Program-made: the position numbers and the translations under genes
Origin: Oligoflexia bacterium
GTDB taxonomy: Bacteria; Bdellovibrionota; Bdellovibrionia; JABDDW01
Assembly: GCA_043732305.1 (NCBI GenBank)
Contig: JAYTHU010000120.1
Location: 1 to 30,937, forward strand
Length of the DNA stretch: 30,937 nucleotides
Reading direction: 5' to 3'
Shown: piece by piece, positions 1-19,510 of the stretch
Position numbering within the stretch: position 1 is the first letter of the stretch
How the letters are laid out: each line of letters starts with the position of its first letter
Notes under the pieces: generated by a model
Told to the model about the DNA's origin: nothing
Seen by the model: only the letters and a program-made list of their open reading frames with translations
Database searches by the model: none

Positions 1-11
1 TAGCAAACTTT

Positions 12-55
12 AATTAGAAAATAAGTTATCCACGTGGATAACTTATTTTCTAATT
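12..55. repeat. 44-bp perfect palindrome (AATTAGAAAATAAGTTATCCAC|GTGGATAACTTATTTTCTAATT)
   Basis: Checked base by base: 22 consecutive complementary pairs centred between 33 and 34, no loop; pairing fails at 11/56. Confidence 0.97.
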
Positions 56-272
56 CAATTATCGTAATATTTCATTCTTACTTGTGGGTAATAGTAAGGC
101 ATAGGGCGGAGCTCACCATTCCGACCAATAGGCAACTTTTAGTCCATTAAACTTGCCGTGTGCAGATTGAACAATGAGTTGTCTGAACACATGCGAACAT
201 TGAGAAAAGATGTGGAGACTTTACTTAAATCCTCTTGAATCCATTGGCTAGGTCAAAGGAACGTACGATGCT

Positions 273-1175
273 TTATTTGTTCTGTTGATCAATCATAAAT
301 TTTAAAATCTTCAGCTTTAGTCGAAAAAAAGGATTGTACGAGCCACATGGCATCCATGATTTTCTTAATCTGTACGAATAGGCGTCGAACTGCATACTCC
401 ACGGAGCAACCAGTCTATTCCCACGATTCAAAATATGCTTAAGAACCTCCGTCCCCATAACTCCAGCAGCGATTTCACAACCCATTGGAATCGACGGGGC
501 TCTGTTCTTGTAGGCATTGGCGTAGGATCTGTCGACTAAAGATTTTAAATGTAAAAAATTTGGCGAGACACCTAAAACAAGACGGCAATATTTTTCAATC
601 TGGCTTCGTCCTTGAAATCCAAAATACTGCTCAAAGGTCATTCCATTCGGATCAAAGCCCACAAACGCGGCCCCCATTCCAATTGGGGCAACGGTCAACG
701 CTGGAATTCCACGTTCTGCACAAGCCCTGAATAAAACTTCACGCAGATCAAGTGCAAATACGTCCAAGCCATCAACATAAATATCGACTCCTTCCAAAAA
801 TTTATCAATATTGTTTTCTTGAACACCCTCTCGAAAAGATATTATCTCAAGCTCTGGATTAATATCCAGAGCCCTTTGCCGCATAACTTCCACTTTTGGC
901 TGACAAAGACTTGTCATATCTGCGCCTGCTTGCCGATTAAAATTTTGTAGCTCAAAAACATCAAAATCTGAAATGTGAAAACTACCAATTCCCAAACGTA
1001 CTAGCGTTAGCAGGTGGGCGCCACCAACTCCACCCATTCCTGCAATAGCTACGCGAGACTTCTTTAAGAGTAGTTGTTCGGAGGGTACAATCCAACCTAG
1101 TGTTCGACAAAAAGCAGATGAATAATCAAACTTTTCAAGTACCGAGGGATTGTGCATATTTAATTTCACCGTCAT
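273..1175 (-). CDS. ThiF/MoeB (E1-like) adenylyltransferase, PRK08223-like; resembles the ThiF half of oxazolone synthetase OxzB
   Basis: VAIAGMGGVG nucleotide-binding loop, DFDVFELQNFNRQ ThiF motif, PKVEV...DINPELEI, N-terminal FDYSSAFCRTLG; no MoeB CxxC zinc motifs; start immediately follows the upstream stop at 1177. Confidence 0.9.
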   Translation of the reverse strand: MTVKLNMHNPSVLEKFDYSSAFCRTLGWIVPSEQLLLKKSRVAIAGMGGVGGAHLLTLVRLGIGSFHISDFDVFELQNFNRQAGADMTSLCQPKVEVMRQRALDINPELEIISFREGVQENNIDKFLEGVDIYVDGLDVFALDLREVLFRACAERGIPALTVAPIGMGAAFVGFDPNGMTFEQYFGFQGRSQIEKYCRLVLGVSPNFLHLKSLVDRSYANAYKNRAPSIPMGCEIAAGVMGTEVLKHILNRGNRLVAPWSMQFDAYSYRLRKSWMPCGSYNPFFRLKLKILKFMIDQQNK

Positions 1176-1176
1176 G

Positions 1177-2421
1177 TTAGGATACTTTTTTTGTACTCAC
1201 TGAAATCAATGAATCAAAATCCTGCCTTAAGTATTTAACAAAGTCTACCCAGTGTAAATCTGTTTTTAATAACTGAATCCCGTAAATCTTACGCCTCTTA
1301 TCTTCCCAACGAACCTCTCCTCGAACTTCAGCAATTCTCCCATCGGCCACTTGGATTTTAAGGAGAACAATTCCACTTAAGTGGACAGATGCAGCCACGC
1401 ACAGCCCCCCTCGCGCGACATCAAGAACGGCTAGACTTAATTTCTGGTGAGAGGATGATTGTCCGATCAAGTTTACATGGTAACGAACATTATCCCTTTG
1501 CTTCTCTAGTTTAATATGCGGAAGAACTGCGTGATAGTGTTCGTCTGGATAAACGGCAGCAAGCCCCATTTTTTCTTGCAACGTGAGCTCTGAAAAAACC
1601 TCTGATTTTTTGACAAAGAAATACTCCAACATTTCTGGAGTCATGACTGGATCTGAGGACTTATTAAAATTCCTATGTGGCAGTTCAAAATGAGGTAATT
1701 TGAGGTCCACAAAATATCGATATAAATTTTTTTCAGGTGCTTTGCGATCGTATAGTCCTGCAAACAATTTTGGGGCTTCACGAACGTTTAAATAAAAGCC
1801 AACTCCGGGGTTTCCATTGGCAAAACTATAATCAGAAACCTCCGCGTGCTTTAGTCGTTTAAAACCTAAAAAACCTTCATAAAAATCAGTCATCGATGGA
1901 TTAACAGCAATGACGATTGAATCAAGATTCATAAATTCATCCACATAATTCCAAAAATACTTTAGTAAAGGCAAAAAAAGTGCGCCCCTTTTTTGGCGAA
2001 ATTTTGAATCAATCGCCAAAGACGAAACCTCTGCAATAACTTCATTGCGGTCGATAATTTCAGATAGATTGAACGCGGACTCCATCGGCAAACCAAACGA
2101 TCCACGCCGAACAATTGAAATGGTACCAACAACTTTGCTGTTAAAAAGCGCGATCAATGTAGTGGTAGAGGGAAGGGCAAAATATTTCACAATTCGCATT
2201 CCAGAAATGTGCGACTTCGAATAACCCAATTCTAAATAGCTATCATGAAGAATTCGGTAGGCCTCTGATAATTCCTCTTGAGTCCGTGCAATTCGGAAGA
2301 GAAATTTAGAGTCCACCTCATTGGAAATTTTAAGCTGATCTCGCATTATTGCAAACCGAAGTTTTGCAGGAAGCATTGAGAGCAGACGACGCGCCACCGG
2401 CAACTTTCTTCGATCTGACAT
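1177..2421 (-). CDS. FeeM-like N-acyl amino acid synthase (GNAT fold) with C-terminal PilZ domain
   Basis: FRIARTQEELSEAYRILHDSY, VVGTISIV, GLPMESAF, AEVSSLAID, IAVNPSMTDFYEGFLGF are typical of FeeM/NAS acyltransferases. C-terminal RDNVR...DVARGG is a PilZ-type signature. ATG 2421 has GGAG upstream (alternative start GTG 2433). Confidence 0.8.
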   Translation of the reverse strand: MSDRRKLPVARRLLSMLPAKLRFAIMRDQLKISNEVDSKFLFRIARTQEELSEAYRILHDSYLELGYSKSHISGMRIVKYFALPSTTTLIALFNSKVVGTISIVRRGSFGLPMESAFNLSEIIDRNEVIAEVSSLAIDSKFRQKRGALFLPLLKYFWNYVDEFMNLDSIVIAVNPSMTDFYEGFLGFKRLKHAEVSDYSFANGNPGVGFYLNVREAPKLFAGLYDRKAPEKNLYRYFVDLKLPHFELPHRNFNKSSDPVMTPEMLEYFFVKKSEVFSELTLQEKMGLAAVYPDEHYHAVLPHIKLEKQRDNVRYHVNLIGQSSSHQKLSLAVLDVARGGLCVAASVHLSGIVLLKIQVADGRIAEVRGEVRWEDKRRKIYGIQLLKTDLHWVDFVKYLRQDFDSLISVSTKKVS

Positions 2422-2474
2422 TTCATTCTCCACGAATTTCGATAGCTACTTTGATCAATTGAACTTCATCTAAA

Positions 2475-2502
2475 TGATCGGTTGCGATTTAGTTAAACTT
2501 AA
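2475..2502 (-). promoter_or_regulatory. Putative sigma-28 (FliA) promoter for the acyltransferase-ThiF operon
   Basis: Minus strand TTAAGTTT-N12-ACCGATCA versus consensus TAAAGTTT-N11-GCCGATAA, about 55 nt upstream of the start; spacer is 1 nt long. Confidence 0.4.
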
Positions 2503-2663
2503 GACAATGGTCTACAAATGGAGCCGAGGGAAATCATTCGGTGGCTCAAAATAAAACGCTTACTAAAATCGACGTAAATCCGACAAGTCTATAGACAATT
2601 AAAATGAAATTATGAAATCATAAATTTTTGGTTTCAAGGTCTCAATCAAAGCAGGGGTGCCGT

Positions 2664-3776
2664 GTGTCCGATTCTATAGAACAACAAAACAGTTCATTGG
2701 ACAGGCTGAACAGGTGGTTTGAGCTTGCCACTCTTGCTCCTTCAGGAGCTAATCTTCAACCATGGTCCTATAGTGGCAAGCCGATTGGAAATGGGTTTAA
2801 AATCACTCTGGGGCTTGAACGTGATTATTTAAATTCGCCTTCTTCAATTGATCCTCTTTTTATCGCAGTCGCCATTTCTTTGGGTGCTTTCGCTAGGAAC
2901 TTAGAAATCGCAGCACTACTCGACGGTTTCCATTGTTCGAATATTGAGCAGCTGGGAGAGAGGGCTTCTGAATGGCGTTGGATTTTTGAGTTTCGTCCGT
3001 CCCTCGGATCCGCGATGGATGCGCAACACTTGAAAACCAGCATTCGCAAACGAGTTTCGAATCGAAACCCATACTCTCGAACTCCAATGGCTACATCTGA
3101 CTGGGAAATGACCTGTAAAATTTTGGGAAAAAATCCAGATTTCACTTTGACGCGATCCCCAATACGCCACCGATATATTTGGATTAAGATCCTCTCAATA
3201 TTAGAAAAAATACGATGCCACGATGATCGACTTCGAACTGAACTTTTTAAAGAATTTCGTACTCAAGAAGAATTACGTAGGGACCCTATTGGATTACCAA
3301 TGGAAACAGTCACGGCCTCAACTACTCAACGTTGGTTTTTGCTTCAACTAAAAAAATGGCCTAAACTACAATTCATTTTAAAATGCGGAGCAGAATACTT
3401 TTTTATAAGATCAAGCATTCGCAAACCATTGATCCATGCAGGTGAGGTGTTAATACTTCAGTCTCACAATCCCGATGCACGTTTCGGCTTCGAAATGGGA
3501 AAACTTCTTGAGGAGCTTTGGCTACGATGGACAGAGCGTGGATATTCACTCCAAATTTTAGCTCTTCCTTTACTTATCCACGGGGCTCAAAGCGACGACT
3601 TTACATCAAGGCTTTCAACCCACAATCAAGATATGCTGAAAAAAGCGAGCCGAATTGCAAAGGACAAACTTGCGATGAACTTGAACTTGCCAACATTGGT
3701 TATTAGAATTGGAAAAGCCAAAATAGAATCTCCCCAGAGTCCGCGACGAAACAATTTTCAGGAGAAGTCTCAATGA
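2664..3776 (+). CDS. Nitroreductase-superfamily (Acg/OxzB-like) FMN-dependent oxidoreductase
   Basis: ATLAPSGANLQPW and IRKRVSNRNPY motifs, ISLGAFARNLEIAA, GKLLEELWLRWTERG, C-terminal IRIG...SPRR. GTG 2664 follows AGGGG (track start 2628). Confidence 0.8.
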   Translation: MSDSIEQQNSSLDRLNRWFELATLAPSGANLQPWSYSGKPIGNGFKITLGLERDYLNSPSSIDPLFIAVAISLGAFARNLEIAALLDGFHCSNIEQLGERASEWRWIFEFRPSLGSAMDAQHLKTSIRKRVSNRNPYSRTPMATSDWEMTCKILGKNPDFTLTRSPIRHRYIWIKILSILEKIRCHDDRLRTELFKEFRTQEELRRDPIGLPMETVTASTTQRWFLLQLKKWPKLQFILKCGAEYFFIRSSIRKPLIHAGEVLILQSHNPDARFGFEMGKLLEELWLRWTERGYSLQILALPLLIHGAQSDDFTSRLSTHNQDMLKKASRIAKDKLAMNLNLPTLVIRIGKAKIESPQSPRRNNFQEKSQ

Positions 3777-3887
3777 CGTCCCCCCAGAGCAAGCCCTCCT
3801 TACTTTAAGTTCTTTCGAATGACACTCGATCAAATTGAATCTCAAAAATTCGCGCGAATTCCGCAGAGGCGCTAGATCTTAAAATCA

Positions 3888-5069
3888 TCAGGGCACAATT
3901 TTTGAAATCACCTTTAAGTAAATTTCGCTTTGATCCAAATAAGGTTCTAAGTATTTGCCACGTTGGCCATTGAAAAACTCGCCGCCAATATGAAAATCGA
4001 CAATCGATCGATCATTCCATGAGTAATCAATACGCAATCCAGCGGACCCATCCAGAGTGTTATCAAACCCCAAAATCTCGAATGTGTCTTTATGAGTACC
4101 GGAGTATAAGGCCCTGATTGTAACTAGGCCTGTGTTGTAATTCGTTAAAGCACCTAGGTTCTGGCCCATCAACTTTGATTCGGCATACTGAATGCTAAAA
4201 ATCGTACTCAAAAATATTGGGGTGTCATAGCCTGCGACATAAATAGTTTGATCTGATTTGACAGTCGTCAGCTGACTTGTTGAAAAGCTTCGTCCCATTG
4301 GATAGTCAAAATCTATTCGCAGCATACCGCCCGCTAATTTGACCGATGCTCCCAACGCAAGAAGAGAATAGGTAGCGTGGCTTTCCTGTAGGTTGCTTGG
4401 CCCTGTCAATATCGTGTATTGAGGATCCCGATCAGCCAACGAGAAGCCGCTGAATTGCCAATCCATCCAGGAGTTATTTCCTGAGATTCGTCCGCCATAG
4501 TCTAGAGTGGTTGGTGTATTCTTGATGATTAAAGTTCCAGAATTTATTCCTTCCGCAGAAAGAGAATATTTATTTTGAGAAGGTACCCCTGCTAACGCCG
4601 TCAAAGTTATTTGTTCGCCGAAATAATCAAGCTTTACCATGGGTGACGAATATTTATCTTTGTCTTCTGTAAAGGGCGACCTTCGATAGTCATATCCGGT
4701 AAAAAGGTTAGTCAGCTCAGGTCCTAAGTTTTGTGTCCAATCAATTTTAGTGAAGCCTGTTAAAACCTGAAAGTGCCCCATTTTAATTAAGCAGTCAAAG
4801 TCCCTGGGGTTGACTTCAGAGATCGTCCCGCCTTGCGATTTATACATAGTGGAATACGATTTAGCATTGAGTTCAAAAGCACATGAAAAATAATTGGTCC
4901 AATTAAATTTTTGACTGATAGTTGAGAAAAATTTTGGCGTCAATTGTTGAGGAGAACCAGACTGCCACTGACCTAATTCAGCATCAACTTCAATTGCAAA
5001 CTGGGATTTCGCAGCCCACACCTCATTCGCCCCATAAAAAATCAACAAATAAAAAATAGCCTTAATCAT
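3888..5069 (-). CDS. Putative outer-membrane beta-barrel protein of the export operon
   Basis: Signal peptide ending VWA-A, alternating beta-strand pattern with aromatic residues, last gene of a LolA-like/ABC operon; lacks a terminal Phe. Confidence 0.6.
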   Translation of the reverse strand: MIKAIFYLLIFYGANEVWAAKSQFAIEVDAELGQWQSGSPQQLTPKFFSTISQKFNWTNYFSCAFELNAKSYSTMYKSQGGTISEVNPRDFDCLIKMGHFQVLTGFTKIDWTQNLGPELTNLFTGYDYRRSPFTEDKDKYSSPMVKLDYFGEQITLTALAGVPSQNKYSLSAEGINSGTLIIKNTPTTLDYGGRISGNNSWMDWQFSGFSLADRDPQYTILTGPSNLQESHATYSLLALGASVKLAGGMLRIDFDYPMGRSFSTSQLTTVKSDQTIYVAGYDTPIFLSTIFSIQYAESKLMGQNLGALTNYNTGLVTIRALYSGTHKDTFEILGFDNTLDGSAGLRIDYSWNDRSIVDFHIGGEFFNGQRGKYLEPYLDQSEIYLKVISKIVP

Positions 5070-5073
5070 AAAG

Positions 5074-6291
5074 TCATATATTTTTTCTTAAGGCTTCGAC
5101 AATATTAAGTCGAAGCCCTTTCGAAATTGGAATTAATGAGGCAACAATAGTGGCTATGAAAATGAGTATGCCAGCACTAAGGAAAGCACTGAGGGAAAAA
5201 CTAAATCGTACTGGTAAAGGTACCGAAGCTCCAGGAACGTCAAAAACAAGCCCTATGGCACTAATAAAATTTCCCAAAAGAAACGCCGCAGATGAACCCA
5301 GAATAATTCCAGCCAGAACCAATATTAATGTTTCAATCATAAACAAATTGTAAATTTCTTTCTTCGTGGTTCCCAATGAGCGGAGGGTACCAATCTCGCC
5401 AATTCGTTCAAGTACGCTCATTCCTATCGTATTTAGAATTCCCAAAACCACAATTGATATTAAAATTGATTGAATGATGAGATTCTGAGTGTCGTAGAAA
5501 CTTTTAACCTTTCGAAAAAGTTCAGCCAAAGAAATCCAATCTCTCTTTTCAATGTCTAAGGAAGTCGAATTGATAATTTGATCTAACTTCGGTGACACCA
5601 ATGATAGATCAGCCGAATTTTTGAGCTTTACAACGAGGACATCGACTCCCGAAGTTTGCATCAAATTTTGCAAATCAGATAATTCGAAATAAGCGAAGTA
5701 TTTATCAATCTCTTCCGTGCCTGTAGAAAAAAAACCAACAACTCTGAAATCGCCAGCATTGACGACTTTTTTAACCGAATTTGCCACTAAAGTTATTTCA
5801 TCCCCAACTTTAATTCCTAATCGATGAGCCAGGAGGTGACCCACCATAATTTCTTTACCTTGATCGTTCGAAAAATATTTTCCCTCTAAAATTTTTAGGG
5901 TCTTCATGATCCCAGTTTCAAGCTTTAGATCATACCCCATCAATGAGACATTCTCGGTTTTCTCGCCAGAACTAATCAACCCAAAAGCACTTAGGCGCCC
6001 GGACACGGATTTGACCTCTGGCAGCTGTTTAATTTGGTCAGCTAGGGTAGAAACATTATTTAAAAGAGTTTCATTTCTTGGCAGATTCGTATTTTGCCAA
6101 TAATTTTTTTTTGCAATCTGAAAATGTCCATAGTGCATTTCTGTAGACACTTCCTCAACCGCATTTATGGAATGGTCTGTAAAACCTCTAAATAAAACTA
6201 AAGCAACAATGGACCCAGAAATCATTAAAAGACTTAAAAATGTTCTCTCTTTATTCCTCATTAGATTTCGTGCTGCGAATTTAAAACTCAC
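5074..6291 (-). CDS. ABC transporter permease, LolC/E-FtsX-MacB family
   Basis: AARNLMRNKERTFLS start, one TM + large periplasmic domain + three TMs, NTIGMSVLERIGEIGTLRSLG motif, IVEALR end. Confidence 0.93.
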   Translation of the reverse strand: MSFKFAARNLMRNKERTFLSLLMISGSIVALVLFRGFTDHSINAVEEVSTEMHYGHFQIAKKNYWQNTNLPRNETLLNNVSTLADQIKQLPEVKSVSGRLSAFGLISSGEKTENVSLMGYDLKLETGIMKTLKILEGKYFSNDQGKEIMVGHLLAHRLGIKVGDEITLVANSVKKVVNAGDFRVVGFFSTGTEEIDKYFAYFELSDLQNLMQTSGVDVLVVKLKNSADLSLVSPKLDQIINSTSLDIEKRDWISLAELFRKVKSFYDTQNLIIQSILISIVVLGILNTIGMSVLERIGEIGTLRSLGTTKKEIYNLFMIETLILVLAGIILGSSAAFLLGNFISAIGLVFDVPGASVPLPVRFSFSLSAFLSAGILIFIATIVASLIPISKGLRLNIVEALRKNI

Positions 6292-6962
6292 GATATTTGT
6301 ACCTGTCCATTTTGAATTTTAAATTTATAATCACTATTTTCTAAAAAATATAGGTCATGACTGCTGCACAGGATTGTGACTCGCGATTTTCTTTGAATAT
6401 CGATTAAGAGCTGGGCAATATGATTTGATGATTCTTCGTCCAAATTTGCGGTTGGTTCATCTGCGATAATAAGCGCTGGTTTTTTAACAATTGCACGGGC
6501 AATTGAAACTCGCTGGCGTTGCCCCCCACTCAGCTGCTGGGGGAATCGCTTTGAAAATTCACTTAAGCCAACTTGTTCCAAGACCTCGCTGACGAGGTGT
6601 CGTCTGTCCTTGAGCGGGACATCCAAAAGACTCAAAGGATATTCGACATTCTCATGAACGGTCATGGTCGGAATTAAATTAAAATTTTGAAAAATATACC
6701 CAATTTTTCTGCGACGTAAATTAGTGAGTTCAAGATCATTCAGTTGCTGCACATTCACGTCTTCAAAGAAATAAGTTCCCCGACTAAAATCGTCGATGCA
6801 TCCGACGATTTGCAAAAGTGTAGTCTTGCCACTTCCAGATCTTCCATGAAGGCCAATAAATTTTCCAGTCTCGATATTTAAAGACAGGTCTGCGAGAACT
6901 GCACTTTCGTCTTCACCAGTGAGATAATTTTTATACAAATTTTCAATTCTAATAAGGCTCAT
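6288..6962 (-). CDS. ABC transporter ATP-binding protein, LolD/MacB-like
   Basis: Walker A GRSGSGKT, signature LSGGQRQR, Walker B IIADEPTANLD. True start ATG 6962 after AGGAG; track start 7031 overlaps the upstream gene. Confidence 0.95.
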   Translation of the reverse strand: MSLIRIENLYKNYLTGEDESAVLADLSLNIETGKFIGLHGRSGSGKTTLLQIVGCIDDFSRGTYFFEDVNVQQLNDLELTNLRRRKIGYIFQNFNLIPTMTVHENVEYPLSLLDVPLKDRRHLVSEVLEQVGLSEFSKRFPQQLSGGQRQRVSIARAIVKKPALIIADEPTANLDEESSNHIAQLLIDIQRKSRVTILCSSHDLYFLENSDYKFKIQNGQVQIS

Positions 6963-6969
6963 CGAACTC

Positions 6970-7671
6970 CTAATTGGCCAAGGCGTCCTTGTTGAAATAG
7001 CTGCTATCAAATTTAACCAAGGCATAGCCAAAGTTTTTCATCGTGGTTTGTTCGTGAGTATTTCGATCTGTAATCACCGTCATGATACAAATTTCTTGAC
7101 CAAGAATTTTTTTAAACTTCAGATATTCAGCGGTTTTTAGCTCTTTGCCAGAGGCCGCATAAAAAACAGCCTTTAAAGGCTTGTGATTTTTTTTATCTAA
7201 AAAATAATGGATTTTTTGATAGGCCGCTCCGTCGGACTTCTTAATCAACTCAAATATTTCGATATTATCCGGAGCATCTTTTCTGTTTACTAAAAGCCTC
7301 GTGGCTGAATAATCGTCTTTGAAGTCAGTTCTTAAAATGTCACCGTTCGAAACATCCCCGGCTAGCCTTTGATCCAGAGTAACTCGAATTGGTCTTTTAC
7401 TTCCTGGAGTGAAAAGCCATAGATCATCATTTTTCATCAAGAGTTTGCGGTTTATTGAATTTGCTGGCTTGGTTTGAATTAGCAAGGAATTCTTACCGCT
7501 CATTGAGACTTCAAATTCAGAGCTATCTCCCGATTTCTTTTCTTCTACAACAACTTTAAATCTGTGTGACAGAATCAACGACCTAAATTTGTCAGCCTCT
7601 GCGATAGAGTTTCCACTGGCGATTGCAAAATTGGAAATAACCAATGTTCCGAGCCATATAAAATATCTCAT
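6970..7671 (-). CDS. Outer-membrane lipoprotein-sorting (LolA-like) periplasmic protein
   Basis: Signal peptide ending AIA-S; LLMKNDDLWLFTPGSKRPIRV...QRLAGDVSNGDI and FYAASGKELK are characteristic of the LolA_like family. Confidence 0.85.
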   Translation of the reverse strand: MRYFIWLGTLVISNFAIASGNSIAEADKFRSLILSHRFKVVVEEKKSGDSSEFEVSMSGKNSLLIQTKPANSINRKLLMKNDDLWLFTPGSKRPIRVTLDQRLAGDVSNGDILRTDFKDDYSATRLLVNRKDAPDNIEIFELIKKSDGAAYQKIHYFLDKKNHKPLKAVFYAASGKELKTAEYLKFKKILGQEICIMTVITDRNTHEQTTMKNFGYALVKFDSSYFNKDALAN

Positions 7672-7998
7672 TCTAACCCATCCCTAGCATACGAAATGAT
7701 TGAATTTTTTTTTCGTTGGACCTCTTTATTTTCTTATTAAAGCCCATTGGATTCAACTGAATTCTGCATAGGTGCAAATGTAGCGAATAAAATGGAGAAC
7801 ACATTGCATGACAAAAGGCCAGGGTGCTCCACCTGATCTGACTAGCGATTTGCTTCGTACCTATCACCATTATTCTTAAAAATCTCAGTGTGATATTCAG
7901 ACGTCAAATCAAAGAAGTTCTTTTTTTTCAGCCAATATGATTTTTTTTTGAAAGGCATAAAGTTGAAAGGAGCTCGACCGCTCTTGGATTGCAGTGAT

Positions 7999-8208
7999 TT
8001 AATGATAGCGTCGCGAATGATAGCTATGGCATGCGATTTTATTAAATGCTGAAGGACAGCTCCAGTTTGATGTGAGATGCTGAAGGGCTTTGAATTGAAG
8101 TTCGGTCACAAGCTTCATCGGAATATCGGGTCGGCCAATGCTAAGGCATCCTAAATAAAATATTATAAATGCTAGTGCCAGTGATGTTAATGCGCCTTGA
8201 AAGTTCAT
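7999..8208 (-). CDS. Small single-TM hypothetical protein (69 aa)
   Basis: AAGGAG RBS 6 nt before ATG, hydrophobic N-terminal helix, directly downstream of the recombinase-domain gene. Confidence 0.6.
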   Translation of the reverse strand: MNFQGALTSLALAFIIFYLGCLSIGRPDIPMKLVTELQFKALQHLTSNWSCPSAFNKIACHSYHSRRYH

Positions 8209-8725
8209 AGTTTTCTCCTTGTTTTTGAAGTTGATTATTCCAGCGTTCGTAAACTTGTTTCACGACTTGGTGGTGCCACTTGTTTTTTCCGCCTCGTCGA
8301 GTTGGTTTGCCGAGACGATCGATTTCTTTAGCGGTGGCGGTCCATGAAAATTTTTGATCGCGAGCCACGGTCACGATGAGGTTACAGATTTTAACTTCAC
8401 TCCGATCCGTCTTGAGCTTTCCGGCAAGAACCCAATATCCAAAGGGCGGATTCGGCGCCCGGTAGTTATCGGTCCTCGTAGAACCGCCTTATTTAGATTC
8501 GCAACGTAATCCAAGTTGATGTATAACTGTAAATATTGATGACTTAGAAGAATCGAGTTTCGTTGCTACTTGGGCGGCGGAGAGGCCTTGAGTTTGGTAA
8601 AGATTTCGCAGGATATCGGGTTCGATGAGCTTTATGTTGAAATTGAAATCGAAAGAATCCGATACCTTAGAGCGGTTCTTCCAAGCTTCATTCTGCTCCA
8701 CCAAATACCAAGCTAGTCGAACCAT
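8141..8725 (-). pseudogene. HTH + serine-recombinase DNA-binding (Recombinase, PF07508-like) domain gene interrupted by one in-frame TAA at 8489-8491
   Basis: Track ORFs 8489..8737 and 8141..8374 share a frame. Read-through gives LYQTQGLSAAQVATKL(HTH)...CESK*GGSTRTDNYRAPNPPFGYW...SWTATAKEIDRLGKPTRRGGKNKWHHQVVKQV. PFGY and the A..L...G.PT..G..W....V..I pattern mark the Recombinase domain. No catalytic resolvase domain. Confidence 0.7.
8674..8723. mobile_element. attP-like dyad of a tRNA/tmRNA-targeting large serine integrase
   Basis: 50 bp GGTTCTTCCAAGCTTCATTCTGCTC|CACCAAATACCAAGCTAGTCGAACC: symmetric GGTTC/GAACC ends, inner AGCTT/AAGCT, central tRNA-like CTCCACCA, adjacent to a recombinase-domain remnant. 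Confidence 0.55.
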
Positions 8726-8867
8726 AAATTCTCCCACTGTAGTGCCGTCTCACAAAACAAGGTTTTCTCAATTTTTTCCATTTGGGAAAACAAAAGTAGC
8801 ACTGACTGAAGATTTTGACAATCCGGCGCCACCTGAAACCTCGTTTAAAAGGCCGTCGAAATTTCTT

Positions 8868-8885
8868 GTGGAGCCCCCTGGGATC
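8868..8885 (-). mobile_element. tRNA-Ala/tmRNA-like 3' fragment (att scar)
   Basis: Minus strand GATCCCAGGGGGCTCCAC fits tRNA positions 57-74 with U70 and discriminator A73; no 5' half of a tRNA present. Confidence 0.5.
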
Positions 8886-9056
8886 ATTCACTCTATTGCC
8901 ACTACGTAACTAGACCAACAAAAAAAGAAAGAGGCAAGGAAGCGTATAAACTTTAGACATAGCGCTGACCGTCTGCGGAAGGCGCGACATGCACACTAGG
9001 CGGGAGAGTTACTAGAAGTATTAATGACGAGATAAAGCCATCATTTTTAGGCGCAC

Positions 9057-9073
9057 ACGGCATAGTTAATGCA
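9057..9073 (+). promoter_or_regulatory. Putative sigma-54 -24/-12 promoter for the J-domain gene
   Basis: acGGcatagttaatGCa has exact GG-N10-GC spacing, about 43 nt upstream of the ATG at 9116. Confidence 0.4.
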
Positions 9074-9115
9074 GCTCCTATTGCATGGCCTTACTATTAT
9101 TAGGAGAGAACAATT

Positions 9116-10048
9116 ATGCGACTCAAGACCTTCACACTCAGCTTTTTATTTTTAATCTCATTTTCAATTCAAACTTTAGCAGATGTTATTAATTATTCTA
9201 AGGCCATCGAGATTTTAGGGGTTTCAGAACAGTCAAGTCCTGAAGAAGTGACAAAGGCTTACAGAAAACTAGCCATGAAGCTACATCCGGATCGAATCGG
9301 AAATGACTCCAGAGAAGAAGACTTCAAAACAATGAAGGAGGCTTATGAATTTTTGGTTGAGATCAATTTCAAGAAGGAAAACGATACCGGTCGAGGATCG
9401 AACAATCACTGGCAGCATGAGAATTCCGATCCAGAGCGAGAGGAATACAAACAAAATATAACAGATTATGAATTAAAGAGAAAGAAGGCAGCGGAAGAAG
9501 CGCAAAAAGGATATACCTTCGATATTGATTCCACATTAGGGATGCACGGACATTTCTTTAACGGAGCGAAGGACATCATATCTATGTTGAGTCTTCGGAT
9601 GGAACAAAACAACATCACCCCTGATCTCGCGTTTCTTGTTTATACTCAAACTGTTATGAAATACGGGCTCGATGAAATATTGAAACTTTATATGCTTTAC
9701 GAAGATTTAAAAATGATTCAGGAGCTGGTTTTCGAGACAATTGGCGAAATGCCCATCACAGCAGGAATAGATAGAATAATAAATTTGAACCTTCGGTCTA
9801 TAACTCAATCTAAAACCGGCAGTACGGAGCTTAAAGCTGCCTTGAATAATTTAACAAATCATTATGGCCTTCTAAAGCTAGCCTCAAACGAAACAAAATT
9901 GAAGCTTGCGTCTGCACTAAAGGTTCATCAGATCGAATGGCCAGATGTTCTCACTGCTGACCCCAGTATCCAATCAAGGATCCTTTCGAGGAGAATTAGC
10001 TCAAAAACGCTTGGTCCGTCCTGCGAACATTTACTCACTCTTTTATGA
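9116..10048 (+). CDS. Signal-peptide-bearing J-domain (DnaJ-like) protein
   Basis: Sec-type signal [22 protein letters not shown], then [28 protein letters not shown]...[11 protein letters not shown] (HPD at 9284-9292); AGGAG RBS; novel helical C-terminus. Confidence 0.85.
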
Positions 10049-10325
10049 TTAGCCTCGAATTTCTGGCTCCCACATTGAAGCCAGCATAGACACGTGATTT
10101 GAACAAGGCCTGACTCTACCCTTTGATAGCGACGGTAACTTTAAAGTTAGCAATATTGTTTGTTTACGAGCAGCCACGGGAGATCGGTCTGAGCGTGATG
10201 AAAGCTCTGCACGCAAGAGTGACGAACAAAACTTATAGCATTTTCCGACGCAAGCTCAAAAACTCAAAATGTATATTCAAACGGCGTCGAGTGACCACCA
10301 AAAATCGCAATCAACACCAGTCCAA

Positions 10326-10348
10326 AGTTTTTACTAATTCTTGATAAT
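10326..10348 (+). promoter_or_regulatory. Possible KdpE-binding T-rich element upstream of the porin-kdp operon
   Basis: TTTTTACTAATTCTTGATAAT resembles the T-rich TTTA(T/C)A-type KdpE site and lies in the only promoter-sized gap before the operon. Confidence 0.3.
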
Positions 10349-10384
10349 ATAAAGTTCATGATCGGGAAAATGGAGGTCCTCGTC

Positions 10385-11749
10385 ATGAAAGCCAATGTCA
10401 CTTTATCACTTGCTTTATATATCGCCCTCACCGCCTTTTCCCATCTCAGTCACGCCGATGATTCTGCAATCGCCGCCATTCCAAAACCCTCAGTGGAAGC
10501 GTTCGCCTTTGCAGACTTTACCTGGCTAAACGGGAATAGTCGACAAAGCACATTTCCTCTCGACTCCAAATTCTTCACCGGACAATTCACCTTCGACGCC
10601 AATTACGTCGGAGACTTCAACCATCCAGCCGATCACACCTTGATTGGATCAAGCAATTCTGGCCGAACCGCAGAAATGCAAGTTCAGCAACTAGGAATTG
10701 GCGGAGATTTTCATTATGAAAATGTTCGTGGAAGAATTATGACCCAATTCGGAATGTACTCAGCCATGACTCCTCGAAATGACGCGAGCACCAGCCGCGG
10801 TCAATGGAACATGGGAGACGCCTACAAATATTTATCGGAAGCTTATGGTGGCTATCACTTCGATGCTATGAACGGCATCAACGTGGATGCGGGAATGTTC
10901 ATGTCCTATGTTGGACTCTGCAGCTACTACAATTATGAAAACTGGGTTTATCAAATGTCTTACGTCTCCGCCAATACCCCATGGTTTTTCAACGGCGTGA
11001 GAATCCAAACATTCCCAAGCGACAAATTGAAAATTGAATATTGGCTCATCAATGGATGGCAGTCCTACGGTATGTTCAATGAATTTCCTGGATTAGGATT
11101 TCAAATTCTTTGGAGACCCACTGGAAATTTATCTTTCGTCACAAACAATTATGCTGGCGAAGACACGTTAGGAAATCCCGGGCGCTCGAGATTTCACTCG
11201 GACAATAGTATTCAAGTTAAGTATTTAGACAAACCTGCTAGCACTCTCAGCAAAGCGGCATTTTCCTTCACAATGGACGTAGGTTGTGAAAATGGAGGAG
11301 GAGTGAGTTGCTCCGGTGGAAATGTGAACGCTCCCAACCAGTATTTCTTAGGACTCATGGCCTACAATAGATTGTGGTTTGATCACGACCATTTCGGATT
11401 TACCTTCGGAGGAGGTTATATAAATAATCCCGGAAGATATTTAGTTTTGATCCCACCCATCAATGGCGCAACTGCCACCACAGGCTCTCCCTATTTCACA
11501 GCTAATTTCGGCGATCAATTTCACGCGTGGGACTCTTCAGTCACGTTCGACTATATGCCCAGCCAATTTATCACTTACCGAGTTGAATTTGTTCACCGAG
11601 TGTCTGACGTTCCCTACTTTGCTGGTGCCCAAGGCATCACGCCCAATGGTGGAAATACGGGAACTCCGGCTACGGCAGATCCTGGTTTTCAACCAGATCT
11701 TGCGACCTCTGAGAATCGCGTGAATCTAGCACTTATGCTCAGGTTATAA
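10385..11749 (+). CDS. Outer-membrane beta-barrel porin (BBP2/DUF1597-like), first gene of the kdp operon
   Basis: Signal peptide ending SHA-DD; GINVDAGMFMSYVG, NTPWFFNG, WLINGWQSY motifs; GGAGG RBS before ATG 10385; 14 nt from kdpF. Confidence 0.8.
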   Translation: MKANVTLSLALYIALTAFSHLSHADDSAIAAIPKPSVEAFAFADFTWLNGNSRQSTFPLDSKFFTGQFTFDANYVGDFNHPADHTLIGSSNSGRTAEMQVQQLGIGGDFHYENVRGRIMTQFGMYSAMTPRNDASTSRGQWNMGDAYKYLSEAYGGYHFDAMNGINVDAGMFMSYVGLCSYYNYENWVYQMSYVSANTPWFFNGVRIQTFPSDKLKIEYWLINGWQSYGMFNEFPGLGFQILWRPTGNLSFVTNNYAGEDTLGNPGRSRFHSDNSIQVKYLDKPASTLSKAAFSFTMDVGCENGGGVSCSGGNVNAPNQYFLGLMAYNRLWFDHDHFGFTFGGGYINNPGRYLVLIPPINGATATTGSPYFTANFGDQFHAWDSSVTFDYMPSQFITYRVEFVHRVSDVPYFAGAQGITPNGGNTGTPATADPGFQPDLATSENRVNLALMLRL

Positions 11750-11763
11750 AAAGGAGAGAGACA

Positions 11764-11847
11764 ATGGACTTTACGATAGCGGGAATTTTTAGTTTAGGAA
11801 TTTTAGTCTACCTCGTTTATGCGATGTTTAACCCGGAAAAGTTTTGA
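11764..11847 (+). CDS. kdpF: K+-transporting ATPase subunit F (27 aa, MDFTIAGIFSLGILVYLVYAMFNPEKF)
   Basis: Translated by hand; AAGGAG RBS; YLVYAM..PEKF KdpF signature; immediately upstream of kdpA. Confidence 0.93.
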   Translation: MDFTIAGIFSLGILVYLVYAMFNPEKF

Positions 11848-11854
11848 GGATTTT

Positions 11855-13528
11855 ATGAATAAGTTTGATTGGCTGCAAATCATCGCCGTGCTCGGAACAG
11901 TGACTTTTCTAACCCCGCTCCTAGGCCGGTTTATGGCGTGGGTTTTTATGAAAACTAAATCCTCACCAATAGAGCGAGTAATTTATAAAATTATCGGGAT
12001 TAAGCATAATGAAGAAATGAATTGGAAGTCCTACACCAAGGCTATTCTCGTTTTTAATTTCCTGGGGCTAATAGTAGTTTTCCTGTTTCAGATTTTTCAA
12101 GGCACCCTCCCACTCAATCCACAGAAATTTCCCGCGCTCTCTTGGCACCTGGCTCTCAACACCGCTATCAGTTTCATCACCAATACAAACTGGCAGTCTT
12201 ACTCTGGCGAAGGTACAATGAGTTATCTCACTCAGATGGCGGCACTCGCCGTTCAGAACTTTTTATCAGCGGCTACTGGGCTTGCAGTATTACTTGCACT
12301 GATCCGCGGATTATCCAGAAAAACCACCAACAATCTCGGAAATTTTTGGGTCGATATGACTAGATCCCTCATTTACATTTTGATTCCAATTTCAATCATT
12401 TATTCCGTGATCTTAGTTGGCCAGGGAGTACCACAAAACTTCAAACCGGCAGTGGAAGTCACAACACTTGAAGGTGTGAAGCAAACAATCCCTCAAGGGC
12501 CTGCAGCCTCACAAATAGCAATCAAACAAATTGGTACAAATGGTGGTGGGTTCTTCAATGCGAACAGCGCTCATCCCTATGAAAACCCAACTCCGTTTTC
12601 AAATTTCTTAGAAATGATCGCACTGATTTTACTTCCTGCTGCGCTCACCTACACCTTCGGCATCATGGTTGGCAGTAAAAAACATGGGGTTGTTCTCTTT
12701 GCAGTAATGATGACAGTCCTTGTTGCCACATTGGGTGCAAGTCTCTGGGCTGAATATCACCCAAATGCAGTCTTTGGTTTGTCAGGATTAATGGAAGGAA
12801 AAGAAACCAGATTTGGAATAACAAATTCTGTTTTATGGTCCACACTCACAACGGCGGCAAGCAATGGATCGGTGAACGCCATGCACGCCTCGCTCTCACC
12901 TCTTGCAGGTGGACTTGCAATTCTCAATATTATGTTGGGCGAAATTATTTTCGGCGGAATTGGAAGCGGTCTCTACGGAATGATTTTATTTGTGATTCTC
13001 ACTGTTTTCCTCTCGGGCCTTATGGTCGGCAGAACTCCAGAGTACCTGGGAAAAAAGATTGAAGCGCGCGATATTCAAATGACAATACTCGCGGTGCTCG
13101 CACCAAGTGCTGTCATTCTTTTGGGCTCGGGAATTTCACTGGTCCTACCCATCGCACTATCTAGCCTTTCAAGCCACGGACCTCATGGACTTTCAGAAAT
13201 GCTTTACACCTTTGCCTCTTCCGCTGGGAATAACGGTTCTGCGTTTGCGGGACTCAATGCAAACACAGTTTATTACAATTTGATTTTAGGATTTGCGATG
13301 CTCGTAGGTAGATTTGCAGTGATCATTCCTTCTATGGCGATAGCAGGAAATATGGCGAAGAAAAAAATCGCAGCTCCTTCATTTGGTACTTTCACCACAG
13401 ACAACGCGCTATTCGCGTTTCTATTGATAGCTGTCATTGTGGTGGTTGGAGCTTTGACTTTTTTCCCTGCGCTGGCTCTCGGTCCCATTGTCGAACACCT
13501 GCTTATGAATGCTGGAAAAACTTTTTAG
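11855..13528 (+). CDS. kdpA: Potassium-transporting ATPase subunit A
   Basis: NTAISFITNTNWQSYSGE, IKQIGTNGGGFFNANSAHPYENP, SNGSVNAMH, GNNGSAFAGL; start ATG 11855 after GAGGA. Confidence 0.98.
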   Translation: MNKFDWLQIIAVLGTVTFLTPLLGRFMAWVFMKTKSSPIERVIYKIIGIKHNEEMNWKSYTKAILVFNFLGLIVVFLFQIFQGTLPLNPQKFPALSWHLALNTAISFITNTNWQSYSGEGTMSYLTQMAALAVQNFLSAATGLAVLLALIRGLSRKTTNNLGNFWVDMTRSLIYILIPISIIYSVILVGQGVPQNFKPAVEVTTLEGVKQTIPQGPAASQIAIKQIGTNGGGFFNANSAHPYENPTPFSNFLEMIALILLPAALTYTFGIMVGSKKHGVVLFAVMMTVLVATLGASLWAEYHPNAVFGLSGLMEGKETRFGITNSVLWSTLTTAASNGSVNAMHASLSPLAGGLAILNIMLGEIIFGGIGSGLYGMILFVILTVFLSGLMVGRTPEYLGKKIEARDIQMTILAVLAPSAVILLGSGISLVLPIALSSLSSHGPHGLSEMLYTFASSAGNNGSAFAGLNANTVYYNLILGFAMLVGRFAVIIPSMAIAGNMAKKKIAAPSFGTFTTDNALFAFLLIAVIVVVGALTFFPALALGPIVEHLLMNAGKTF

Positions 13529-13545
13529 ATCAGGATTGAGGATTT

Positions 13546-15624
13546 ATGCAAAAGTCGCTTTTTAATAAAAAAATAATAATGTCCGCCGTTGTGGATTCGT
13601 TCGTGAAGCTTCATCCTCGGACTCAATTGAAAAATCCTGTCATGTTTATCACAGAAATTGGCGCAGCATTGACAACCGTTTCTGTTTTTATCGGAATTTC
13701 CAAACATTCATTCTCTCCCTTTGAACTGCAGATAGCGGTTTGGCTTTGGTTCACCGTTTTATTTGCAAATTTTTCAGAAGCGGTTGCGGAAGGACGTGGA
13801 AAAGCTCAAGCCGAAAGTTTAAAAAAGGCACGCACCAGCACTCCTGCACGCGTGATGGTGAATGGCCAAGAGACAAAACGTAATGCGGACACTCTCAAAA
13901 AAGGAGACATTGTTTGTTGTGAAACCGGAGACATCATCCCCGGAGATGGCGAAGTCATCGAAGGCATTGCCACGGTAGATGAGGCAGCCATCACCGGAGA
14001 ATCTGCGCCCGTGATCAGAGAAAGCGGCGGAGACAGATCGGCAGTCACCGGCGGAACCAGAGTCATAAGTGACAGAATTTTAATTCGCATCACCGCAGAA
14101 CAAGGGTCTAGCTTCCTCGATCGCATGATCTCCCTGGTTGAAGGGGCAAAAAGACAAAAAACTCCCAATGAAATTGCACTTTCGATTTTAATTTCTGGCT
14201 TAACGATTATTTTTCTACTAGCCGTAGTCACATTGAAATTTTTTGCAGACTACTCTGGTCATGCCGCAGGCCAAGATCTTTCTCAAACCGTCACCGTCCC
14301 CGTTTTGATCGCGCTGCTTATTTGTTTGATCCCAACCACTATCGGTGGACTTCTTAGTGCGATCGGCATCAGTGGAATGGACAGACTCATTCAAAAAAAT
14401 GTCATTGCGATGAGTGGCCGAGCAGTTGAAGCGGCAGGAGACATTGACGTTTTACTTTTAGATAAGACTGGAACAATCACTCTCGGGAATCGAATGGCTC
14501 ACGAGTTTTTGCCGGCACCAGGAGTAACAGCAGAAAGGCTTGCGGAAATTTCTCAGTTGGCATCACTGAGTGATGAAACTCCTGAAGGCCGTTCGATTGT
14601 GGTTTTGGCAAAAGATCGATTTGGATTACGGGCAGAGACATTAAACGCGGGTGAAACAGAGTTTATTCCCTTCTCTGCGCAAACGCGAATGAGTGGAATC
14701 AACACAAAATTAGGCGATAAAATCACCGCTATCAGAAAAGGTGCCGCAGAATCTGTTGCGACGTTTATTGAATCGCTCGGCGGGATAATGCCCAAAGAAG
14801 TTATCGATAGCGCAAACAGTATAGCTAAAAAAGGTGGAACACCTCTTGTGGTCAGCTTTGGAGATCAAGCCTTGGGAGTTATTTATTTGAAAGATATTGT
14901 GAAGGGCGGAATCAAAGAAAGATTTTCTGAACTGAGAAAAATGGGAATCAAAACAATCATGATCACCGGAGACAATCCTTTGACTGCAGCTGCGATTGCT
15001 GCCGAAGCCGGCGTTGACGATTTCATGGCGCAAGCGACACCAGAGTCGAAACTTCAACGCATTAGGGATGAGCAAGCCAAAGGAAGTTTAGTAGCAATGA
15101 CCGGGGATGGAACAAACGACGCTCCGGCTTTAGCGCAAGCTGACGTTGGCGTGGCGATGAACACCGGAACACAAGCGGCCCGAGAAGCGGGAAACATGGT
15201 GGATCTAGACAGCAATCCCACCAAGCTCATTGAGATTGTCGAAACAGGTAAACAAATTTTAATGACCCGTGGATCGCTCACCACGTTCAGCGTGGCCAAT
15301 GACGTGGCTAAATATTTTGCTATTATTCCTGCGCTCTTTGCCACTTTATATGCGGCACCAGGAATAAACGGTCCTCTCGCGCAACTCAATGTCATGGGCC
15401 TTCATTCGCCTCAAAGTGCTATTCTGAGCGCGGTTATTTTTAATGCCCTCGTGATTATCGCTCTCATTCCACTGGCACTCTCCGGAGTCAAATACAAAGC
15501 CCTCGGAGCGTCCGCACTCTTGCGACGAAATCTTTTGATTTATGGATTGGGCGGATTGATCGCTCCGTTTATTGGAATTAAACTCATTGACTTGATTGTA
15601 GTCTCGATTGGAGCTGCCAAATGA
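13546..15624 (+). CDS. kdpB: Potassium-transporting P-type ATPase subunit B
   Basis: [38 protein letters not shown]. Confidence 0.99.
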
Positions 15625-16154
15625 AAACTTTAATGATCTCGATTAAATTTTTAATTCTTATGACAGTATTAACAGGTTTTATTTATCCAGCAGCGATCAC
15701 TCTGATTTCTAAATTTATTTATCCTGAAAAAGCTGGAGGAAGTTTCATCTCAAACCACCAAGATCAAACGATTGGGTCATCTTTGATCGCACAAAACTTT
15801 AAAGCAGACAAATATTTTTGGCCTCGCCCATCAGCGGTAGATTTTAATCCCGCGGCCTCTGGAGGTAGCAACCTGGGGCCAACCAGCTCGGATCTGCTCA
15901 CTCAATTCAAGGCACGTCAGAAACAAGGATTTACTCATGAGATGCTTTTTACCTCTGGGAGCGGACTGGATCCGCACATCAGTCCGGAAGCAGCCTACGA
16001 TCAGCTCAAAAGAGTCGCTACCAGCAGAGGTAAATCGGAAAGCGAGATGAAATCTCTCGTGAACGAATATAGTGAACCCCGACAATTCGGTTTTCTTGGT
16101 CAAAATCGAGTGAATGTACTAAAACTTAATCTAGCATTGGATGAAAGGGATTAA
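15621..16154 (+). CDS. kdpC: Potassium-transporting ATPase subunit C
   Basis: [38 protein letters not shown]. Confidence 0.97.
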
Positions 16155-16157
16155 ATA

Positions 16158-18815: not shown

Positions 18816-19510
18816 AATCGGAAATAAAAACCAAAATTTTGGTGATAGATGATGAAATTTCCGTTTGCCGATTTTTAAGACATAGCCTCGAGGCCAGTAA
18901 ATTTGAGGTAGTAGAAGCACACTCGGGCCAAGAAGGATTGCAAAAAACCGCTGAGGTTCATCCGCAACTGATCCTCCTAGATCACGGTCTTCCCGATATC
19001 TCGGGCCTTGAAGTGCTTAAGAAATTGCGAGCTTGGTCGAAAACCCCGGTGATTTTTTTAACCGTCAGGGACGGCGAAGAAGATAAAGTTCAAGCTCTTG
19101 ATGAAGGTGCAGATGATTATCTCACCAAACCATTTAGCGTTCCAGAACTCATCGCGCGAATAAAAGTTTCTCTGAGACACTCTCAACCAGAAAAAACGGG
19201 ATCAATATTTAAAACTGAGGAACTTGAGATTGATTATGCAGCACACTTAGTGAAAATGAATGGCAATGAGGTAAAACTCACCGCCACCGAATTTATGTTG
19301 CTCGAGTTGTTATCCAGAAACGCGGGCAAAGTTGTTCCCAATCGAAATATCCTCAAAGAAGTTTGGGGACCAAATTCTGTGGAGCATGATCACTACTTGA
19401 GAGTTTATTTTAGTCAGATAAGAAAAAAGCTCGACGCAGCAGCGCTCGGAAAAAGCCCGGATTTAATTGAAAATGAGTCAGGAGTGGGTTACAGATTAAA
19501 AGTTATTTGA
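18812..19510 (+). CDS. kdpE: Response regulator KdpE (OmpR family)
   Basis: LVIDDE, LLDHGLPD, GADDYLTKPF, EVWGP...HYLRVY, GVGYRL; overlaps the kdpD stop. Confidence 0.95.
   Translation: MKSEIKTKILVIDDEISVCRFLRHSLEASKFEVVEAHSGQEGLQKTAEVHPQLILLDHGLPDISGLEVLKKLRAWSKTPVIFLTVRDGEEDKVQALDEGADDYLTKPFSVPELIARIKVSLRHSQPEKTGSIFKTEELEIDYAAHLVKMNGNEVKLTATEFMLLELLSRNAGKVVPNRNILKEVWGPNSVEHDHYLRVYFSQIRKKLDAAALGKSPDLIENESGVGYRLKVI

Follow-up and report, generated by a model that had tools for sequence, protein, structure and literature searches.

The DNA analysed here, called the window throughout, is the whole of contig JAYTHU010000120.1 (30,937 nucleotides; contig C120 of our numbering) from an Oligoflexia bacterium (assembly GCA_043732305.1). 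Close to its left end, between positions 273 and 7671, lies an island of seven genes, three for predicted enzymes and four for a predicted envelope transport cassette. All seven open reading frames (ORFs) are present at full length and without internal stops, just where the original prediction had placed them. With a probability of roughly 55%, we favor the reading that this island produces an N-acyl oxazolone lipid by a three-step synthesis and sends it out through a predicted, dedicated Lol-like route. Judged from its sequence features, the cluster is of the OxzAB/TyzABC pathway kind.

Three predicted enzymes of a probable oxazolone pathway

The central gene (1177..2421, minus strand) encodes a FeeM-type N-acyltransferase, hereafter the synthase, that ends in a PilZ domain. 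It matches the FeeM family PF21926 with an E value of 1.2e-30 and 107 bits, far above the cut-off of 27. Its structure model, with a predicted local distance difference test (pLDDT) score of 90, superimposes on FeeM (2G0B) with a Z score of 20.4 and a root-mean-square deviation (rmsd) of 2.4 over 181 residues. Glu131 aligns with the catalytic glutamate of FeeM and is kept in 118 of 118 homologues, namely those of at least 370 residues among the 120 listed. The original prediction had spoken of a signaling domain, which Pfam, the homologues and structure comparison together identify as a PilZ fold. Residues 308-405 superimpose on MotI/DgrA (5VX6), which we take to be a PilZ protein, with a Z score of 11.7 and an rmsd of 2.6 over 97 residues. 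The Pfam PilZ model PF07238 matches the same C-terminal part at E 0.001, below its cut-off, and at E ≤ 0.01 in 24 of 42 aligned homologues. PilZ domains that bind cyclic di-GMP (c-di-GMP) typically carry the motifs RxxxR and (D/N)xSxxG. The former is present as R309 and R313, with R313 found in all 118 homologues. The latter is not canonical, reading D334-V-A336-R-G-G339 (DxAxxG) with Ala336 in place of the serine; it is canonical in 17 of the 33 closest homologues, 16 of which have both motifs in canonical form. The predicted synthase step may be under c-di-GMP control, and the host genome encodes five GGDEF proteins.

The gene behind the synthase (273..1175, minus strand) encodes a stand-alone ThiF-family adenylyltransferase of 300 residues and of the oxazolone-synthetase type, a predicted cyclodehydratase. 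It scores E 1.8e-40 against PF00899 and 398.7 bits against PRK08223 (cut-off 266). Searching for it among longer proteins gave 931 matches, and in the best 120 listed the matching region, 50-57% identical over about 93% of the window ThiF, is accompanied by an oxidase domain in every case. The window ThiF agrees with these 120 fusions at 86 of their 93 conserved columns and has no CxxC. By comparison, its identity to the MoeB, ThiF and TcdA proteins of Escherichia coli is 27-29% over about half of its length. A FastTree tree of 87 sequences, among which OxzB, TyzB and TrzS were not included, places the window ThiF with ThiF-nitroreductase fusions in a clade of 80 (support 0.943), apart from the E. 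coli proteins and from four Rv1355c-like fusions (26-33% identity). A grouping with the housekeeping TcdA/MoeB clades, the outcome that would have spoken against the original prediction, was not what we found, and a housekeeping identity was rejected on the PRK08223 score, the identities and the tree placement. A di-domain synthetase of the OxzB/TrzS type was likewise set aside, the ThiF and nitroreductase parts being separate genes on opposite strands.

The third predicted enzyme (2664..3776, plus strand) is a stand-alone flavin-dependent oxidase of 370 residues, Acg/TyzC-like, of the nitroreductase superfamily, and a predicted desaturase. It has no match in Pfam. Since a search with the single sequence gave just three relatives, we searched by profile, which found 1865 relatives at E ≤ 0.001 among cluster representatives. 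The best solved structure for the family profile is Acg (2YMV, E 1e-24), which is the closest structure for TrzS too (PMC12856293). The oxidase also matches a profile built from the fusions' C-terminal halves (E 3.5e-19) and retains the invariant residues S27, N30, R134, G279 and R348. With regard to the groups FDO-A (OxzB, TyzC, Rv1355c) and FDO-B (Acg), it scores alike and below cut-off against the Acg family model NF047509 (E 3.7e-23) and against the C-terminal half, positions 367-714, of the Rv1355c family model PRK07877 (E 3.4e-20). Taken together, the FeeM fold with Glu131, the ThiF of the fusion clade and the Acg-like oxidase bear out the earlier claim of enzymes of the OxzA/OxzB kinds, where OxzA, OxzB and TyzABC are known to us by description.

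Probable start codons are ATG 2421 for the synthase (behind GGAG), GTG 2664 for the oxidase and ATG 6962 for the ATPase of the cassette, each with a purine-rich site ahead of it. A single base separates the synthase stop from the ThiF ATG; such spacing fits translational coupling and is no proof of it. The oxidase diverges from the synthase across an intergenic region of 242 bp (2422..2663), in which both promoters would be expected. A promoter scan of positions 1-9200 gave 29 sites against 19.8 ± 3.8 in shuffled sequence, and a terminator scan gave 8 against 8.8 ± 3.1. Against this background, no individual promoter is established. The original prediction had proposed that oxidation could be regulated apart from acylation and adenylation. 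This proposal found no support: the divergent layout is confined to the closest relatives (L009, and in part L005), the scan singles out no promoter, and other loci either lack the oxidase or have it next to ThiF or in one protein with it. We rejected separate oxidase regulation as a conserved trait, gene order being too variable.

On the favored reading, the synthase would join a fatty acyl group, from an acyl carrier protein (acyl-ACP) or coenzyme A (acyl-CoA), to a probably aromatic amino acid, as its fold, Glu131 and the published synthase Nas354 suggest. Its PilZ domain, with an imperfect motif, may tie this acylation to c-di-GMP. ThiF would then adenylate the carboxylate with ATP, upon which the amide oxygen would close the ring with a loss of 18 Da. 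The oxidase, presumably carrying flavin mononucleotide, would desaturate the alpha-beta bond with O2 (-2 Da), either before or after ring closure. Gene linkage and folds point to a fourth step, in which the permease of an ATP-binding cassette (ABC) transporter would lift the lipid from the inner membrane, a LolA-like carrier would take it across the periplasm and an outer-membrane barrel would release it at the surface, the cargo being the oxazolone or its ring-opened acid.

The Lol-like cassette and the recurrence of the gene set

The four cassette genes lie on the minus strand in the order LolA-like protein, ATPase, permease and barrel, with gaps of 7, -4 and 4 bases, and the barrel gene ends 111 bp from the oxidase stop. 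The LolA-like periplasmic protein (6970..7671, 233 residues) scores 100 bits against PF17131 (cut-off 30) and E 6e-29 against the NE2245 structure 3BUU. The LolD-like ABC ATPase (6288..6962) matches PF00005 at E 1.8e-33 and has AGGAG upstream. The permease (5074..6291, 405 residues) belongs to type VII, the MacB/LolCE/FtsX-like kind, according to PF12704 and PF02687, and hydropathy predicts four membrane segments. We rejected a housekeeping LolCDE-LolA system: against TIGR02212 the permease scores 113 bits, far under the cut-off of 362, compared with 297 and 228 bits for the two other LolCE candidates of the host genome. The outer-membrane beta-barrel (3888..5069, 393 residues) is DUF1302/AlgE-like. 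It has no direct match in Pfam, PF06980 included; three scanned cassette homologues of it match DUF1302 (E 6e-9 to 3e-4). It resembles Atlas porin/DUF1302 clusters at 0.97-0.98, and its model (pLDDT 75) is mostly beta, with its highest TM-scores, 0.63-0.65, to AlgE.

We examined the recurrence of these genes in 390 genomes of the host's class, 389 of them non-self; the host's order accounts for six genomes. Of the 390 genomes, 93 gave a match to the synthase, 75 to ThiF, 85 to the oxidase and 165 to the LolA-like protein. The three enzyme types are found together in 55 of the 389 non-self genomes versus 3.8 expected if they were independent, an excess that is overstated because kin genomes are not independent. 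The closest titled homologues of the cluster come from Bdellovibrio and Bdellovibrionales records, from which we take the class to be Bdellovibrionia. We further inspected 60 stretches around the best of 136 non-self ThiF matches, many of them on short contigs. Among the 59 that contain ThiF, 27 carry a synthase, 16 an oxidase, 10 both and eight a LolA-like gene. A listed synthase or ThiF gene stands no more than 10 kb away from 14 of the 39 closest LolA-like matches versus 3 of the 110 more distant ones; this count covers 149 listed non-self LolA-like matches, with 62 further ones, 44 synthase matches and weaker ThiF genes such as those of loci L181 and L182 outside the lists. Another 20 stretches, which supplied the observations on L183, L185, L191, L192 and L197-L200, were picked around LolA-like matches and are hence biased toward linkage.

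The window's three-enzyme layout is found in L009, at 50%, 64% and 76% identity, and in L005 as far as that contig extends, at 91.5% DNA identity and with the synthase frame open. In L123 and L129 the order LolA-ABC-permease-barrel comes after ThiF; in L191 and L192 it lies next to the synthase, and synthase and cassette stand in the window's order. In L015 the synthase directly precedes LolA, ATPase and permease genes at 66-68% identity. An MMPL protein occupies the slot of the ABC unit in L157 and L163; there (L157:7730-12717) it stands with a DUF1302-like barrel and a LolA-like protein beside synthase and ThiF. The recurrence that the original prediction had put forward as a check was observed: the genes co-occur elsewhere, and all seven do so in two further places, L185 (one other genome) and plasmid pBdHAGR2 (AP029178.1, 48 kb) of the cultured strain Bdellovibrio sp. 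HAGR004. On the plasmid, the LolA-like protein (43% identity), ATPase (52%), permease (52%), barrel (25%) and ThiF (47%) form one run, and the synthase (60%) lies across the origin. The oxidase, of 366 residues and with a profile E value of 1.5e-57, lies about 6.5 kb from the synthase, past glycosyltransferase and IS66 genes. The plasmid and L184 share, at 99.9% identity, a 2.8-kb block that holds oxidase and glycosyltransferase.

Several side observations concern these loci. The plasmid oxidase (L179:39196-40296) is annotated with 166 residues where the frame yields 366, and an unlisted frame of 200 residues across the plasmid origin (48236-572) is similar to the PilZ part of the synthase only. 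L125:1607-3565 encodes a fused ThiF-oxidase of 652 residues behind a PilZ-type synthase and ahead of two permeases; fused and split forms therefore coexist in the class. In L007:1403-2770 a ThiF gene and then a second, frameshifted copy converge on a synthase. Two loci of genus g10 (L181:7413-15863 and L182), one of them from a complete genome, show a one-strand run of ATPase, permease, LolA, permease, a 418-residue protein, GNAT, oxidase and ThiF, in which the acyltransferase slot is filled by a different GNAT that is not of the FeeM kind. On the plasmid and in L122, L153, L158 and L186, the enzymes repeatedly have EryCIII-like glycosyltransferases, sugar dehydratases and methyltransferases as neighbors, which hints that the products are glycosylated or methylated.

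Precedents and rival readings

The cluster had been singled out as the best candidate for an undescribed system. This part of the original prediction is not supported: split acyltransferase, ThiF and oxidase clusters have been published (PMC10404671; PMC12479983), and so has an acyltransferase-PilZ fusion (PMC4897644). De Rond et al. showed OxzA with a fused OxzB (bioRxiv 10.1101/2020.06.11.147165). Grigg et al. showed the split TyzA/TyzB/TyzC of Mycobacterium tuberculosis, with tyzA on the opposite strand to tyzCB and mmpL9 adjacent (PMC10404671). Kleetz et al. described TrzAS, and in their network of 2416 related ThiF proteins the majority have an oxidase or acyltransferase as neighbor (PMC12856293). 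The window resembles TyzABC in having three separate proteins, a FeeM-like acyltransferase, a ThiF and a single-domain flavin oxidase, on two strands and with an adjoining transporter gene. It differs in that synthase and ThiF are encoded on one strand, with the oxidase diverging from them, whereas tyzC and tyzB are on the same strand, and, as far as descriptions allow comparison, in the PilZ domain of the synthase and in a LolA/ABC/barrel cassette in place of mmpL9. With OxzA/OxzB (Pseudoalteromonas rubra and other proteobacteria) and TrzA/TrzS it has the three activities in common, and its ThiF is 50-57% identical to proteobacterial ThiF-nitroreductase fusions. In contrast to OxzAB and TrzAS, ThiF and oxidase are unfused in the window, the window ThiF is distant from the Rv1355c-like (TrzS-type) fusions, and the window has both a PilZ domain and an export cassette, neither of which is described for those systems in the parts of the sources at hand.

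Separate synthase, ThiF and nitroreductase genes are also found in the Gram-negative clusters for thalassotalic acid, kyonggic acid and stieleriacine, from Thalassotalea, Massilia and Stieleria, whose products are N-acyl dehydrotyrosines; unlike for the window, no PilZ domain, transporter or exporter is mentioned in the main text (PMC12479983). Compared by description, the synthase-PilZ fusions Nas343 and Nas354 share with the window protein a synthase domain, a linker of about 80 residues, a PilZ domain and an essential glutamate (E103 there, E131 in the window). They differ in that they presumably lie outside any biosynthetic operon, and c-di-GMP control is only proposed for them (PMC4897644). 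Clusters of DUF1302, DUF1329 and RND genes, for which export of an envelope component with unknown cargo has been proposed (bioRxiv 072470; PMC13499233), and NE2245 (3BUU) share with the cassette an AlgE-like barrel, a LolA/LolB-fold periplasmic protein and an inner-membrane pump. In contrast, the window has a type VII ABC unit, a PF17131 protein and a candidate cargo from adjacent enzymes. Each individual part has precedent. What appears to be new is a PilZ-bearing synthase within such a pathway, a Lol-like cassette that recurs, and the module's spread across Bdellovibrionia, where a plasmid of a cultured strain is among its carriers. Our literature search, with subscription journals and some supplements outside it, found nothing joining the oxazolone pathway to Bdellovibrionota, PilZ or a LolA-like cassette. 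Enzyme chemistry by itself would add one more member to a known pathway.

A number of observations weigh against the making and export of an oxazolone. The full gene set is missing from most relatives; synthase, oxidase and LolA-like gene come together in just one of the 59 ThiF stretches, and among the 120 best oxidase matches just 34 have a listed ThiF or synthase at a distance of up to 10 kb. Around synthase homologues from 80 loci, mostly betaproteobacterial, we found ThiF in seven, a LolA-like gene in 12 and an oxidase match in three; the betaproteobacterial loci are often of the PEP-CTERM kind, and a PrsK-type kinase cluster is present in 20 of the 80. The likeness to OxzA, OxzB and TyzABC comes from descriptions and family models, which predict no substrate, and Ala336 and the share of closest homologues with both canonical PilZ motifs (16 of 33) count against c-di-GMP input. 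Producers with the same three genes gave N-acyl dehydrotyrosines and no oxazolones (PMC12479983). This last point also speaks for an unlikely reading, in which the end product is an N-acyl dehydro-amino acid of the thalassotalic, kyonggic or stieleriacine type, or a plain N-acyl amino acid surfactant, with the oxazolone a transient that enables the oxidase and then hydrolyses. Oxazolones hydrolyse easily, N-acyl tryptophans were found mostly in the medium and tryptazolones in cells (PMC12856293), and Nas354 by itself confers a surfactant phenotype (PMC4897644). Against this, ring-opened acids may be extraction artefacts (PMC12856293), and the ring is formed by OxzAB, TyzABC and TrzAS alike (bioRxiv 10.1101/2020.06.11.147165; PMC10404671; PMC12856293).

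It is rather improbable, in our view, that the enzymes act as described while the cassette is a passenger of the island that is unconnected with the product and moves lipoproteins or takes up hydrophobic compounds. The cassette does have a separate promoter side, from which it runs convergently toward the enzymes; LolA-like genes are present in 165 of the 390 genomes and cassettes without the enzymes in L183 and L197-L200, a distribution that also counts against dedicated export; and DUF1302 proteins have been linked to the metabolism of fatty acids or esters as well as to the export of an unknown component of the cell wall (PMC13499233; bioRxiv 072470). On the other side, the 14 of 39 closest listed LolA-like genes that stand beside the enzymes are spread over many orders and families, L123, L129, L015, L191 and the plasmid show runs on one strand that include ThiF or synthase, and ABC and MMPL alternate in one slot. 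We give little credence to a further scheme, in which ThiF would activate the N-acyl amino acid for transfer to a surface protein or glycan, a PEP-CTERM/ExoAT-like modification with no release of a small molecule. The PEP-CTERM setting of betaproteobacterial homologues and of a Nitratidesulfovibrio triple fusion would suit it, as would the glycosyltransferases that neighbor the enzymes in L122, L153, L158, L186 and the plasmid. The window's annotated ORFs, however, include no exosortase, PEP-CTERM or glycosyltransferase gene (the remainder of the genome was not searched for them), and an identity of the synthase as the PEP-CTERM/exosortase-associated acyltransferase (ExoAT, TIGR03694) was rejected at 21.6 bits against a cut-off of 112. 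That the island is silent or decaying in its host is most improbable: mobile-element remnants surround it and the enzymes were not found in any of five family relatives, yet all seven frames are intact, as are the catalytic residues, and the synthase frame is open in L005, the relative at 91.5% DNA identity.

Beyond the favored reading lies a bolder and, in our estimate, doubtful one: Bdellovibrionota would pass a module among themselves on plasmids. In it, c-di-GMP would turn on the synthesis of a reactive oxazolone lipid, which a Lol-like conduit of type VII ABC unit, LolA-like carrier and DUF1302-like barrel would bring to the cell surface or to prey. If true, this would give the first cargo for this uncharacterised transporter type and the first extracellular role of oxazolones. 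The physiological role of N-acyl oxazolones has been termed a major unresolved question (PMC12856293). The cluster ties that question to the one of what LolA-like/DUF1302 cassettes carry, with a second-messenger input as a possible addition. Because homologues of all seven genes reside on a plasmid of a cultured Bdellovibrio strain, product, export and role are testable by plasmid curing or gene deletion.

Genomic setting and neighboring sequence

Composition and flanks of the cluster identify it, at the sequence level, as a horizontally acquired island in a host genome of 2.99 Mb (242 contigs, GC content 0.427). GC content is 0.399 over positions 1-7700 versus 0.435 past 9000, and the three enzymes were found in none of the five family relatives, four of which are at least 95% complete. 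The inferred left edge (112..153, plus strand) is an att-like scar, consisting of a degenerate 3' end of a tRNA-Ala gene and 36 bp of the DNA downstream of it; positions 118-153 equal, at 35 of 36 bases, the DNA directly behind tRNA-Ala(GGC) on contig C1 (217-252). On the far side lies a mobile-element remnant (8141..8737, minus strand), made up of a short helix-turn-helix frame, with a weak MarR match below cut-off, and a stop-bounded frame. The latter (8141-8488, minus strand) shares 79% identity across 122 codons with another such remnant, which lies on contig C164 (4150-4680), about 5.5 kb from the transfer-messenger RNA (tmRNA) gene. It has no recombinase match in Pfam, and we call it presumably recombinase-like from a motif. 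The recombination scars of the original prediction are partly borne out, by the att-like copy and the shared remnant and not by a recombinase family match. A mis-binned contig was rejected, since the Der protein encoded on it is closest to family relatives, with 58-68% identity in four of the five versus 44-48% in five genomes of other families.

We further checked the assembly against contigs of two DNA runs from one study, possibly of the source sample. Across positions 1-12000, 30 of 30 bins are covered, with a depth mostly of about 8-12 that is similar for the cluster and the kdp region behind it. Neither joints nor differing letters were listed, and no single piece spans the entire covered stretch. 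We saw no sign of an assembly chimera in these runs. A record in both runs agrees with the synthase from window position 1202 onward and differs before it, which suggests a strain variant or a second synthase copy with a different C-terminus. A search for RNA data sets carrying the cluster listed none. The contig ends 272 bp beyond ThiF, so additional genes on that side are not visible.

At the left end of the contig, positions 12-55 form a perfect 44-bp palindrome, which is likely repeated elsewhere because contig depth there is 27-42 versus about 9; it holds what we take to be DnaA-box-like words. To the right of the island, a gene for a DnaJ-domain protein (9116-10048) has no full-length match in the five family relatives, and positions 10358-19510 hold the gene for a BBP2 beta-barrel and, behind it, the kdpABCDE potassium operon in complete form.

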